DNA of 64,000 nt from an uncultured Planctomycetota bacterium. GTDB lineage: Bacteria > Planctomycetota > Planctomycetia > Gemmatales > Gemmataceae. How positions within the stretch are numbered: position 1 is the first letter of the stretch; each line of letters starts with the position of its first letter. Position numbers: made by a program. Below are positions 48,001 through 50,995 of this stretch, one piece after another. Location: assembly GCA_963849325.1 (NCBI GenBank), contig CAWKHF010000002.1, forward strand, positions 909,026 through 973,025, read 5' to 3'.

Positions 48001-50995
48001 AATTACTGCACCCGAAGACGTTCGCGTTCGGTCACGAAGGAACGGCGTGGCAACGTCCGTAAGCCCATCCGAGCCTGAAGCGTAAGCGAAGAAACGACAA
48101 CCTTCGGTTGTCGTTTCTTCGCTTACGCTTCAGGCTCTGTAGACGCTCCGTCCACCCTACCCCCTCTTCATCCTCACGTCCGTCCGCAATTGTCGCTTAC
48201 ACGATGACGGCCCTCCTCGAAGGGCCCTCGTCCTGTCCCGCACTCACTTCCAGGAGACCGCAGGTGAACATCTATCAGATCGTGGACGTTCGCACAGGCG
48301 AAGTCATGGCCTCGCTTCGTGCCGCCAACCGGCGCGAGGCGGCCGAAAAGGCAATCCACGCGGGCCGAAGCCATTTCCGCGTCCGCTGTGTCGCCGCCTG
48401 GGTTCCGCAGACCAAGCACCAGGCGGAGGCCAATGAAAGTCTCGGCGCCGCGATGTCCGCAAACATCGCTTAATTACGAACCAACCTGACCGGCCTCGGG
48501 GTGTTCCCGAAGGGCCGGCTTTCGTGAATGGGTATTTCGATCCGGTTTCTCTCTGTCGCTTCCCTGAAAGGAGCACCCTACCATGCGTAAGCTCGTTTCC
48601 GCTCTGCTGACAACCACCGTGGCCCTGACCAGCCTGGCCTATGCCGCTGCCCAGACCGGCCCGACCGGCCCCCCGAGTGGCGGCCCGAGCGCTCAGCCGG
48701 CTCCCGCCGCCGCCAATGGCTTGTCGGAGACCGAACTGCTGAGCTACCTTCGTACCCTCGACCCCAACGTCAAGATGACCAAGAGCCAGGACGGCAAGGC
48801 GACGATGTACCAGCTGACACTGCGCCGCGGCGATTGGCAGTATCAGATCGTGCTGGTCTTGCGGGAAGGCACCCTCGACATCATCGCCCCGCTGGGCAAT
48901 CCGATTGCGAACGTCCAGTCGATTCCGGCCCAGGCGCTGGCCGGACTGTTGCAGGCGAGCTGGAACTTCGCCCCGGCTCAGTTCTCGCTCATCAAGCAGA
49001 ACGACGGCCGGATGCAGCTGGTCTTCTCCTTCATGCTGTCCCGCGCCGGCCTGACCACGGCGCGCCTGGGTCAGATTCTCAATGGCTTCTGCGACGCGGT
49101 GCGCGAGACCTATCCGCTCTGGAACGCGGTCCTCAGCGCCAGCAAGTAAGCGCTTGTCCTCCGATTATCTCGTTTAGCCGCGACGCGCAGCGGAGCGCGG
49201 GAGTATTCCCGCGCTCCGCTGCGCGTCGCGGCTAAACGAGGAGTTCATTTCTTTCCGCTGCCCAGCAGCAAGGAGTGTCCGATGCACGTTTTCGTCCAGG
49301 GTCGCAAGCACACCGTGCTCGTCTCGGTCGCGCTGGCACTCATCCTGACCGGCCGCGTCTCCGCTCAGACCGGGCCGATCAAGGGCAACCTGCACGTGGT
49401 CTCCGTCGGCGTCGATAATCCGACGTATGGCGACACGAACCAACCGCTGCGCGGCGCCGCCAAGGACGCCGAGGCCGAGGCCCGCTTCTGGGCCACCCAG
49501 CAAGGGAAGCTCTTCCATCAGGTCCACGTCGCGCCGGCCCTCACCAACGAGAGCGCGACCCGTCAAGCGGTGCTGGCCAACCTCGATCGATTGATCGAGT
49601 CGGCCCAGCCCGGCGATACCGTGGTGGTGGCGCTGTCCGGACATGGTGGGATCGATCCCCGGACGGGACAATATGCCTACTGCGCCTATGACGTGCCCGT
49701 CTCCGCCGCCGAGCTGCGCGAGCGCGTCGAGAAGTTGGCCCGGAAGGGCGTGCGCGTCCTCCTGATCGTCGATACGTGCCATGCCGGGGCCATCGGCATC
49801 CACGGCGACAACATCATCGTCCTGGCGGCGTGCGCCGCCGATGAATACGCCGCCGACGGGCCGAGCAATGGGTTGTACACCCAGGTCCTTCTCACCGGGT
49901 TGAATGGCGCCGCCGATGCCAACAAGGACGGCATCATCACTTTGGCCGAGCTGGATGTCTATGTGGCGACGCAGATGGAAAAGGCCCGCTGCACGCAATG
50001 TCCGACCTGCGGCCGGCCCGCCAACATCCGCAGCAATCTGCCGCTGGCGACGGTCGGCGACTCCTTCCACCACTCCGAGCAACGGAGGAGGAACGGGACC
50101 AATCCATCCACAGCAATAACCGTCTCTTTGGGTCAGCGGGACATCCCGCTGGCCCTTTTTTGTCGCGGTTACTTGCCGACGACGGAATCGAAGACGCGCA
50201 CCTTCTTCCAGTTGTCCTTGTTTTCCTCGATGAATTGCTGGTGTCGCTTGGCGTCCTGGTACTTGTCGTGGGACGCCTTGTCCTTGAAGACGATGTGCAG
50301 GGCCACGTCGAAGTCGCGGTCGTTGACCTCGCGGTTGAGGTCTTCGGCGCGCGTGCCGGCGGCGAAGAAAACCTCGCCGGGATGCTTCGACAGATAGCTC
50401 TTGCAGGCGTCCACGAGCTTCTGTCGGGTCGCCGCCGAATTGTCCTTGAGCGCGAAATAGACGTCGTGGGACAGCATGGAACCGGAATCCTCCGCCGCGT
50501 CCGTCCGGCCTCGATCGTGAAGGGCGAACCACGCCGCGACGGCCAGGCCAAGGACGACACCGCACGCCAGTTGTTTCCGCATGATCCTCTCCTTTCACCC
50601 GGATGGGGGTGCTCGATGTTCCTGGTGTAGCCGGGCGCGCGGCATCGACAAGAGGAACGGTCCGGAAGGAGGGAATGCTGGAGGAGGGACTCGAACCCTC
50701 ACGAGGCTTTCGCCTCTTCGGATTTTCGTACCACTATGGCTTTCGCCACCCTTGCGGTTTGTGGTCTGGACTTTCCCTTGGCCGTGGGTTTTCCCTTTAG
50801 GCCTCAGCCGCCAAGTCTCTACACCTTCTCCGGCCGCAACGGCCGGAGTTTGGCTCGGGATTGCCACCACCTTGACGTGAGAGGTTCCCCCGACTTCGAC
50901 TGAATTCACGCGGAGGGTTTCCCACTCCGGTGCTCAAATGGCTCAAGTCCGATGCGTCTGCCGATTCCGCCACTCCAGCGGCGGATTCACTCTAG

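Follow-up and report, generated by a model that had tools for sequence, protein, structure and literature searches.

The window, meaning the whole stretch of 64,000 nucleotides analysed here from the Gemmataceae genome G000, carries on its minus strand, at 50676-50979, a tRNA-Leu(UAA) gene that is split between U34 and A35, as established by direct reading and by comparison with intron-less orthologues. The parts of the gene are as follows:

50945-50979 (-): 5' exon, 35 nt, GCUGGAG...CGGACUU, tRNA positions 1-34 with U34 the last base before the 5' splice site, by direct reading
50727-50944 (-): group I intron, 218 nt, without an ORF, delimited by the gap against intron-less orthologues (959752-959969 of contig C2)
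50676-50726 (-): 3' exon, 51 nt, AAAAUCCGA...CCAGCA, with A as the discriminator base and CCA not encoded

The 3' exon supplies A35 and A36, the rest of the anticodon arm, the long variable arm, the T arm and the acceptor strand.

Boundaries of the split gene and its surroundings

The intron-less tRNA-Leu(UAA) genes of a congener (G106) and of a member of another genus (G004) were aligned to both exons, leaving a 218-nt gap that falls exactly between ...GGACTT and AAAATCC... and bearing out the host gene and the U34/A35 site given in the genome-wide survey's note; the gap against G004, also claimed there, was reproduced by direct search. The exons of G106 and G000 are 100% identical, and the 5' exon is likewise identical in the intron-less congeners. 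A soil DNA contig at a depth of 173 joins 50726 to 50945, skipping exactly 50727-50944. The intron length of 216 nt in the note was corrected to 218 nt (50727-50944) from the gap against the intron-less genes; the shorter figure arose because ARAGORN, run with introns (-i), sets each of the two junctions one base further in. The same shift explains why this program, which the note credited with joining the exons, did call a gene at the locus but with misplaced junctions, as a 'tRNA-Ser(gga)' whose anticodon loop has 9 nt. No tRNA was detected at the locus by plain ARAGORN.

No other class II tRNA-Leu(UAA) gene was found in G000, the sole other 'Leu(taa)' call being a 74-nt gene that lacks the long variable arm, and splicing would therefore be needed in this genome; as G000 is 84.7% complete, a second tRNA-Leu(UAA) gene may be unassembled. 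Introns are also present in the tRNA-Arg(CCU) and tRNA-Asn(GUU) genes of G000. The sole flanking ORF with a family assignment is a divergent gene for S-adenosylhomocysteine hydrolase on the plus strand, from about 51065, with no connection to the intron. A promoter and terminator scan near the gene returned no terminator-like site and a single promoter-like site, on the opposite strand at 51033-51062, and gave nothing usable.

Fold of the intron

The secondary structure was modelled on alignment A1, comprising 40 introns from the family (Gemmataceae), Cyanobacteria, Acidobacteriota and Pseudomonadota. In the list below, percentages are the share of cells that pair, and compensatory pairs are those of the same alignment:

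50933-50947 (-): P1 and internal guide, exon C32-U33-U34 and intron G1-A2 with intron U8-U9-G10-A11-G12
50907-50932 (-): P2 hairpin, GAAA tetraloop at 50918-50921, 85.4%, both sides changed in 9 of 10 pairs, present in the minimum free energy (MFE) fold
50897-50903 (-): P3 5' strand, UCAGUCG, paired with 50804-50810, 92.5%, 5 of 7 pairs compensatory
50855-50893 (-): region of P4, in which 50888-50893 pair with 50855-50860, 100%, 2 pairs compensatory
50864-50884 (-): P5/P5a, enclosed by P4, 77.6% in P5 and 6 of its 7 pairs compensatory
50823-50854 (-): P6 (3 bp, 100%) and P6a hairpin (9 of 9 pairs compensatory)
50814-50819 (-): P7 5' strand, G-A-GACU with a bulged A, forming a pseudoknot with 50768-50772, 98.5%
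50804-50810 (-): P3 3' strand, CGGCUGA, partner of 50897-50903
50780-50803 (-): P8, outer helix 100% with 3 of 4 pairs compensatory, motif CCUAA...C-A-C-GG
50768-50772 (-): P7 3' strand, AGUCC, with covariation in A1
50730-50765 (-): P9 three-way junction, made up of P9 (ACCAC/GUGGU; 93%, 4 of 5 compensatory), P9a (CC-GCAA-GG) and P9b (GAAA loop at 50741-50744; 97.5%, 5 of 5 compensatory)
50727 (-): terminal G (omega G), fixed by the gap against the intron-less genes

Within P1, U34·G10 is the splice-site wobble; the C-G, U-A and U·G pairs are constant in 40/40 aligned introns, as is the guide UUGAGC across the alignment, cyanobacterial introns included. U8-U9 can alternatively pair with A35-A36 of the 3' exon (P10). 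The two compensatory pairs of P7, presumably the guanosine-binding helix as in other group I introns, change from C-G to G-C and from U-A to G-C, and the motif in P8 presumably resembles a tetraloop receptor.

On A1, the P1-P9 model with its P7 pseudoknot was paired in 89.9% of 2768 cells, compared with 31.7-44.8% for slid controls in which the partners were moved by 1-3 columns, which confirms the note's group I fold and its compensatory changes. Both sides change in 51 of 71 pairs, and none of 500 shuffles reached any of five measures. The MFE fold of the G000 intron alone recovered P2, P3, P5, P6a, P8 and P9b (z = -3.19), as good a fold being found in 0/200 shuffles, and all core helices of this copy are canonical except for a single U-U mismatch in P5. 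A G precedes AAAAUCCG in all 69 extracted Leu introns, in keeping with the conserved terminal G noted previously. Three structural marks of a group I intron were found, namely the P1 U·G wobble, the omega G and a P3-P8/P4-P6 core with a covarying P3/P7 pseudoknot.

Introns of subgroup IC3 are compact and lie in tRNA anticodon loops; their P2 and P9 end in GNRA loops, the receptors for which are in P8 and P5. Set beside these criteria, the intron shows a length of 218 nt, GAAA in L2 and L9b and CCUAA in P8. The IC3 label is given to four classical tRNA intron types by the database cited in Williams, 2020 (bioRxiv 10.1101/2020.01.27.920355), and tRNA-fMet (U33/C34), tRNA-Ile2/Met(CAU) and tRNA-Arg(CCU) (after U36) are classical IC3 types in the same source.

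Distribution and relatives of the intron

The Leu intron was found in at least 42 of 252 Gemmataceae genomes, from at least 15 of 90 genera, and within the genus of the window 7 of 11 genomes (G000 counted) carry it while the exons are adjacent in the other 4, so that it is a presence/absence polymorphism within the genus. The patchiness described in the note thus stands, with these counts replacing its 42 of 201 genomes, 25 of 90 genera and 4 of 8 congeners. Plain BLAST with the intron gave matches in 70/252 family genomes, many of the weaker ones being related introns of fMet and other CAU tRNAs. A separate BLAST of the family for the tRNA gene, in which two candidates per genome were scored, missed the orthologue in G004 that direct search recovered. 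Group I introns of other tRNAs occur widely across Planctomycetia. Of 29 loci fetched, one (L020) is cut by the contig end, and the insertion site is identical in the 28 with a complete gene, extending the 12 of 12 reported earlier; lengths span 214-705 nt and not 216-267 nt.

The introns of the congeners G109 (703 nt) and G102 (705 nt) contain, in the P6a loop, a sense ORF of 152-153 aa that scores 25.6 bits on Pfam HNH, where the cut-off is 21.4. The intron of G153, from a different genus, holds a remnant of an HNH ORF, and a 688-nt acidobacterial trnL intron has, at the same place but in antisense, an ORF 43% identical to that of the congeners. Because relatives of the G000 intron bear this homing-endonuclease gene in P6a, a cycle in which homing is followed by loss of the endonuclease and then by precise loss of the intron is, as judged from ORF presence alone, the most likely source of the patchiness, acting in addition to vertical descent; the G000 copy would then be at the endonuclease-less stage. 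Vertical descent was not rejected by AU tests, either as monophyly of the genus (p 0.245) or as monophyly of the family without a nested Caldilineaceae intron (p 0.308).

Same-site trnL introns were also found in Acidobacteriota (Pyrinomonadaceae), Pseudomonadota, Chloroflexota (Caldilineaceae), Armatimonadota and a Firmicute. Genome contigs were scanned with the pattern ACGCNNCGGACTTN{3,12}TTGAGC, giving at least 119 loci, 73 of which showed no intron by the first 3'-junction pattern; these are mostly chance matches in coding DNA, a few being either cyanobacterial tRNA-Leu genes without an interruption or introns whose flanks are truncated, and a reading of the scan as placing the intron in 'dozens of phyla' was discarded as wrong. 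A stricter pattern that included the tRNA context identified the intron in at least 40 of the loci. The scan is no census, because its pattern demands one particular anticodon-stem sequence.

Rfam Intron_gpI (RF00028) aligned to the G000 intron end to end, over model positions 1-253, at 35.1 bits (E 7.4e-7), the score given in the note, which lies under the gathering score of 50 required for Rfam membership. All six cyanobacterial trnL introns tested passed this threshold, whereas the other non-cyanobacterial ones tested (7/7) fell under it, with a maximum of 47.7 bits; cyanobacterial introns scored 72-95 bits and those of the Gemmataceae 29-41. Our own model R1 scored the G000 intron at 233.8 bits. 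A profile of 221 positions, built from 21 family introns for nhmmer, gave matches to trnL introns of Cyanobacteria that reached 68.6 bits (E 1e-21) and covered positions 4-213, which supports the homology to the cyanobacterial intron raised in the note. The profile also matched 37/37 other distinct trnL-site introns tested, from other records, with 80-98 bits for 9/10 Acidobacteriota introns and 90 bits for one from Pseudomonadota, and matched the Asn and Arg introns of G000 in the core only (42.6 and 31.6 bits). By sequence similarity, the G000 intron is homologous to the cyanobacterial trnL introns over nearly its full length, and the U34/A35 site and whole-intron homology expected of the trnL(UAA) lineage were both found.

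In phylogenetic trees the family introns grouped at 96/95 among Leu introns and at 97/97 in a wider tree with other tRNA introns, three g35 introns lying outside the main family clade in the latter. The 20 cyanobacterial introns formed one clade (100/98) with no family intron inside. The clade of the family very probably belongs to a set of trnL-site introns that is widespread among bacteria.

Origin, splicing and comparison with known systems

One tentative reading of this set is that the trnL(UAA) intron, long regarded as an inheritance of cyanobacteria and plastids, is a single branch of a pan-bacterial lineage at this site, whose histories in Planctomycetota, Acidobacteriota, Pseudomonadota and others are long and mostly track the hosts. 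An HNH endonuclease that would target the anticodon-loop region of tRNA-Leu would keep this lineage in circulation, and standard annotation would miss it, because split genes are passed over by tRNA finders and the Rfam threshold passes cyanobacterial members only. A separate insertion is possible too, if somewhat doubtful: a resident planctomycete tRNA intron, such as that of fMet or another CAU tRNA, would have entered the Leu(UAA) loop independently of the cyanobacterial and plastid event, the common site and guide following because the exon sequence CUU/AA dictates them. The backbone of the wider tree is a polytomy, in which the family Leu introns adjoin planctomycete fMet and CAU-tRNA introns and the cyanobacterial Leu introns join the introns of planctomycete CAU tRNAs (after U36) and Arg tRNAs (90/77, not starred). 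Family fMet introns score 127-154 bits on model R1 and have the 3' end ...GCGAAAGC-GUAGUGGUA-G in common with the Leu introns, and the Leu(UAA) intron of G305, one base upstream between U33 and U34, shows that sites can shift. However, although the free tree did not recover a single clade of all Leu-site introns, forcing all 62 into one costs only 13 log-likelihood units and was not rejected (AU p 0.297); with the other tRNA introns removed, the non-cyanobacterial Leu introns became sister to the cyanobacterial clade (93/80), and the likeness to cyanobacterial Leu introns extends over nearly the full length, including the peripheral P2 and P9. A recent horizontal transfer from a cyanobacterium, of the intron by itself or of the entire tRNA locus, would account for the matching site and guide sequence but is extremely unlikely, given that every family intron falls outside the clade of 20 cyanobacterial introns and lies nearer the acidobacterial and proteobacterial ones, that the exons are planctomycete-like and the same as in intron-less congeners, and that the Rfam scores of the two groups are set apart.

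In the precursor, exon C32-U33-U34 would pair with guide G10-A11-G12 to form P1 with the wobble U34·G10, and a free guanosine bound in P7 would attack after U34. The terminal G218 would next occupy the guanosine site in P7, A35-A36 of the 3' exon would be held by U8-U9 in P10, and the freed 3'-OH of U34 would attack after G218, the exons being ligated to a tRNA of 86 nt whose anticodon loop reads CUUAAAA. The core would be clamped by the GAAA loops of P2 and P9b, which probably dock on P8 and P5.

Expression was surveyed in three metatranscriptome runs and one DNA run, all as contigs, with word shares of 0.24-0.32, so that the contigs are mostly from relatives. Metatranscriptome contigs from three studies contained the 3' exon-intron junction unspliced, where DNA carry-over is possible, and one of them equals 50672-50789 with 0 differences; the 218-nt splice joint was not seen among RNA contigs of the three runs, contigs being unable to show its absence. 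These unspliced junctions and the sub-threshold Rfam score would fit a dead relic that no longer splices, in a tRNA pseudogene. This is very improbable, since the exons are the same as those of the congener's intact gene, the core helices are canonical save for one U-U pair, compensatory change maintains the helices across the family, and no substitute class II tRNA-Leu(UAA) was found in G000. The locus at 50676-50979 (-) is very probably a functional tRNA-Leu(UAA) gene, and the group I intron that splits it at U34/A35, 218 nt long and without an ORF, is of the small type found in bacterial tRNAs (IC3-like).

In annotation, the UUA-reading tRNA looks absent from G000 and at least 41 other family genomes, because tRNA finders fail to join exons across a group I intron; together with the rejection of G+C-rich members by Rfam, this would lead to wrong inferences on codon capacity and completeness. 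The trnL intron serves as the textbook case of an 'ancient' intron, and its vertical or homing history is a question on which the phylum-specific same-site clades outside Cyanobacteria bear, as do the alleles of one genus, which carry the endonuclease, lack it or lack the whole intron, and the remnant in G153. The G000 intron itself is real but fairly ordinary, introns of its kind being common in several bacterial phyla, and is not a new type of element. Literature searches gave no textual report of introns of this kind from Planctomycetes, the by-phylum table of the 2020 survey (bioRxiv 10.1101/2020.01.27.920355) lying outside those searches; the novelty claimed in the note was overstated, given the same site in at least five other non-cyanobacterial phyla and the survey itself, a preprint that had already counted 5292 group I-split tRNA genes by bacterial phylum. 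For Beggiatoa and Thiomargarita, tRNA-Leu-TAA introns are reported in PMC4853749.

Among known systems, the intron is like the cyanobacterial and plastid trnL intron ('Leu.3Ug' of Williams, 2020; Anabaena/Nostoc) in its host gene, its U34/A35 site and its guide UUGAGC with U·G. The terminal G before AAAAUCC and the helix plan, in which P2 and P9b are capped by GAAA loops and P9 is a three-way junction, are likewise those of the cyanobacterial introns. Unlike these, it belongs to a separate clade, is G+C-rich, scores 35 bits on Rfam as opposed to 72-95, and has close relatives with an HNH endonuclease gene in P6a. Cyanobacterial trnL introns are described as lacking an ORF and as varying in length in P6b. 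The trnL-site introns of other phyla agree with the family introns in site, guide and fold and give the highest profile scores (80-98 bits). They also have the 3' end ...GUAGUGGUA(A/C)G in common with the family introns and, in one acidobacterial case, the homologous HNH gene at the same place; they form separate clades that largely follow host phylum. The introns of tRNA-fMet, tRNA-Ile2/Met(CAU) and tRNA-Arg(CCU) belong to the same small ribozyme family and all occur in planctomycete genomes too, but differ from the intron described here in host tRNA, position in the anticodon loop and guide.

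Host gene and intron boundaries

A tRNA-Leu(UAA) gene on the minus strand of the window is split at the classic trnL site, after U34, into the following parts.

Window 50979-50945, minus strand: 5' exon, reading GCUGGAGUGGCGGAAUCGGCAGACGCAUCGGACUU; 5' half of the tRNA, with a 3-bp D stem and U34 as its last base
Window 50727-50944, minus strand: group I intron of 218 nt, starting after U34 and ending in G
Window 50726-50676, minus strand: 3' exon, reading AAAAUCCGA, then the long variable arm, T arm, acceptor strand and discriminator A

Joined, the exons give an 86-nt class II tRNA with the anticodon loop CUUAAAA, that is, tRNA-Leu(UAA). 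The intron-less genes of a congener, G106 (its exons 100% identical to those of the window's genome, G000), and of G004, from another genus, were aligned to both exons and left a single gap of exactly 218 nt, and a soil DNA contig joins 50726 straight to 50945; the intron was therefore placed at window 50727-50944, its terminal G being fixed by the intron-less orthologues. The genome-wide survey's note had read this well-conserved intron and its site correctly, and its 218-nt gap against G004 was reproduced, but its length of 216 nt reflects a junction shift in ARAGORN. Plain ARAGORN called no tRNA at window 50676-50979; with introns allowed it did join the halves, as that note held, but misplaced each junction by one base, giving a 216-nt intron, and labelled the gene 'Ser(gga)' with a 9-nt loop. 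An S-adenosyl-L-homocysteine hydrolase gene (window 51065-51934, plus strand; Pfam AdoHcyase, E 1.7e-41) diverges from the tRNA gene; long ORFs on the other flank had no Pfam match.

Ribozyme fold and putative splicing

The Rfam Intron_gpI model aligned along the full length of the G000 intron with 35.1 bits (E 7.4e-7), the same score as obtained previously and under the gathering score of 50. A P1-P9 model with a P3/P7 pseudoknot was drawn up from the G000 sequence, where all pairs are canonical but one (U-U in P5), and was then scored on an alignment of 40 same-site introns, drawn from the family (Gemmataceae), Cyanobacteria, Acidobacteriota and Pseudomonadota. Of 2768 cells, 89.9% were paired, compared with 31.7-44.8% when partners were slid by 1-3 columns, and both sides had changed in 51 of 71 pairs, values reached by 0 of 500 shuffles; the compensatory changes claimed earlier were thereby recovered. 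P3, P4, P6, P7, P8 and P9 were 92.5-100% paired, each with compensatory changes (in P3, for example, the family has UCAG/CUGA where Cyanobacteria have GCUC/GAGC and Acidobacteriota GGAG/CUCC), the U·G pair at the splice site was present in 40/40 introns and the guide UUGAGC was invariant. Folded alone (-88.2 kcal/mol, z = -3.19), the G000 intron showed P2, P3, P5, P6a, P8 and P9b; L2 and L9b are GAAA loops, and P8 carries a CCUAA motif that we take to resemble a tetraloop receptor. The element is a well-conserved group I intron.

Splicing is putative, the case for it being indirect: the exons match an uninterrupted gene in a congener exactly, compensation maintains the ribozyme helices, and no other class II tRNA-Leu(UAA) was found in the 84.7% complete G000 assembly. 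Contigs from the RNA libraries of three studies run across the exon-intron junction in unspliced form; the spliced joint was not found among these contigs, which cannot prove its absence. The same assembly lists no class II Leu(CAA) gene. Outside the window, ARAGORN also called a 'tRNA-Leu(taa)' (C4:434429-434502) and a 'tRNA-Leu(caa)' (C1:516042-516115) in G000, each of 74 nt and lacking the long variable arm that leucine tRNAs have in bacteria.

Distribution, homology and descent

The whole precursor was searched against 252 family genomes, with two candidates scored per genome. Matches spanned exons and intron in 25 genomes, flanked an insert in two pieces in 8, and covered the 3' half and 3' exon in 8 others, all of genus g35 (three fetched and confirmed); in G112 a further, divergent copy sits at the end of a contig. 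The patchy presence reported by the survey's note held, with different figures: at least 42/252 genomes, at least 15/90 genera and 7 of 11 genomes in the window's genus (G000, G101, G102, G104, G105, G107 and G109; exons adjacent in G100, G103, G106 and G108). Exons were adjacent in nine family genomes; most of the remainder gave no match, which, with two candidates each, is not read as absence. BLAST with the intron alone matched 70/252 family genomes, and R1, a Leu-intron model, matched 52/151 genomes, many of these matches being to related introns that interrupt fMet tRNAs or other CAU tRNAs.

A scan with an exon-plus-guide pattern, covering a single genome for each species, gave at least 119 loci, most of which proved on inspection to be chance matches in coding DNA. 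A stricter pattern also demanding tRNA context left same-site introns in 40 among the matches listed: 20 distinct introns from Cyanobacteria, 10 from Acidobacteriota (mostly Pyrinomonadaceae), 4 from Pseudomonadota, one each from Caldilineaceae, Armatimonadota and a Eubacteriales MAG, and three planctomycete records. A profile of 21 family introns matched 37/37 other distinct introns from the scan, the top matches being acidobacterial and proteobacterial (80-98 bits), with cyanobacterial introns scoring as high as 68.6 bits (E 1e-21) across profile positions 4-213; the Asn and Arg introns of G000, used as controls, matched in the core only (42.6 and 31.6 bits).

A tree built from 66 Leu-site introns and one outgroup placed the cyanobacterial introns in one clade (100/98), the non-cyanobacterial introns in another group (93/80) and the family's 29 in a clade (96/95) within which one Caldilineaceae intron is nested on a long branch. 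From the profile matches and trees, homology to the cyanobacterial trnL intron, a check outstanding in the survey's note, is established. Recent transfer from Cyanobacteria is contradicted by the separate cyanobacterial clade. The insertion may have a single origin in common with Cyanobacteria: when 33 planctomycete introns of other tRNAs were added, the backbone became a polytomy in which Leu-site introns were not recovered as a single clade, and forcing them into one was not rejected (AU p 0.297). The nested intron (L047 714-1022, from a Chloroflexota MAG) reflects either a transfer between phyla or an artefact; a monophyletic family that leaves it out was not rejected (AU p 0.308).

The intron measures 703 nt in G109 and 705 nt in G102, the extra DNA lying in the P6a loop with a sense-strand ORF for a 152-153-aa protein (Pfam HNH, 25.6 bits; cut-off 21.4). 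The 688-nt trnL intron of an acidobacterium (L065 714-1401) has a 43%-identical HNH gene in the same place, antisense to the intron; the 3' end of this gene overlaps ribozyme core sequence. This gene family occurs in 14/252 family genomes. One genus has alleles with the endonuclease, alleles without it and alleles without the intron, and in another genus of the family the intron (G153) keeps an HNH remnant; this set matches the states that a putative homing cycle would be expected to leave. Purely vertical descent was not rejected (AU p 0.245 genus, 0.308 family). Outside the window, G000 also has a free-standing HNH frame (C12:920159-920788, plus strand), 38% identical to the congeners' intron-borne protein; this frame extends into the start of a tRNA-Leu(UAG) gene (C12:920702-920785).

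Other tRNA introns and known systems

Two further tRNA group I introns were found in G000. A 369-nt intron follows U36, the classical Arg site, in tRNA-Arg(CCU) (C6 ~90866-91234, minus strand, outside the window; 66.9 bits on R1, 31.6 bits on the Leu-intron profile). A 664-nt intron lies between U35 and U36 of tRNA-Asn(GUU) (L001 1455-2191, minus strand, contig C3; Rfam 56.6 bits, over the cut-off); the LAGLIDADG-type frame in its 5' part (…LAGIIDGEG…) resumes in another frame and so looks broken or misassembled.

In the class sample (Planctomycetia), R1 matched 54/151 genomes, including 35/35 of one family, mostly twice each; inspected loci (L168-L172, L175, L178, L183 and others) held introns in Lys(UUU), CAU, Arg(CCU) and Leu(UAA) tRNAs. 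Twelve inspected loci of the 35/35 family had introns at U34/U35 of tRNA-Lys(UUU) (7) or after U36 of a CAU tRNA (5), and other planctomycete families had CAU-tRNA introns at U33/C34 and Arg(CCU) introns. In the tRNA-Leu(UAA) gene at L164 471-782 (genome G305), the group I intron (R1 98 bits) appears to interrupt the U33/U34 junction, a single nucleotide 5' of the classic site; its guide fits this position, GGU pairing with ACU.

Cyanobacterial trnL introns scored 72-95 bits with Rfam Intron_gpI (6/6), and non-cyanobacterial ones under 50 bits (7/7; best 47.7, 41.5, 40.2 and 29.3), three of the seven going unmatched at E 0.01. The original Rfam model had 12 seeds, none of them bacterial (Williams, bioRxiv 10.1101/2020.01.27.920355), and the paper on tRNAscan-SE 2.0 states that detection of such introns was not part of its design (PMC8450103). 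No report naming Planctomycetes was found in the literature text, in agreement with the survey's note, the by-phylum table of Williams (2020) lying outside that coverage. Three points add interest: outside Cyanobacteria the introns form host-specific clades, some relatives carry an HNH gene, and standard annotation is systematically blind to such introns.

The G000 intron is real, well conserved and a fresh instance of the already known trnL-site group I introns. Williams (2020, bioRxiv 10.1101/2020.01.27.920355) tabulated 5292 group I-split bacterial tRNA genes of 21 types by phylum, with 'Leu.3Ug' as a classical type, and tRNA-Leu-TAA introns are on record for Beggiatoa and Thiomargarita (PMC4853749).
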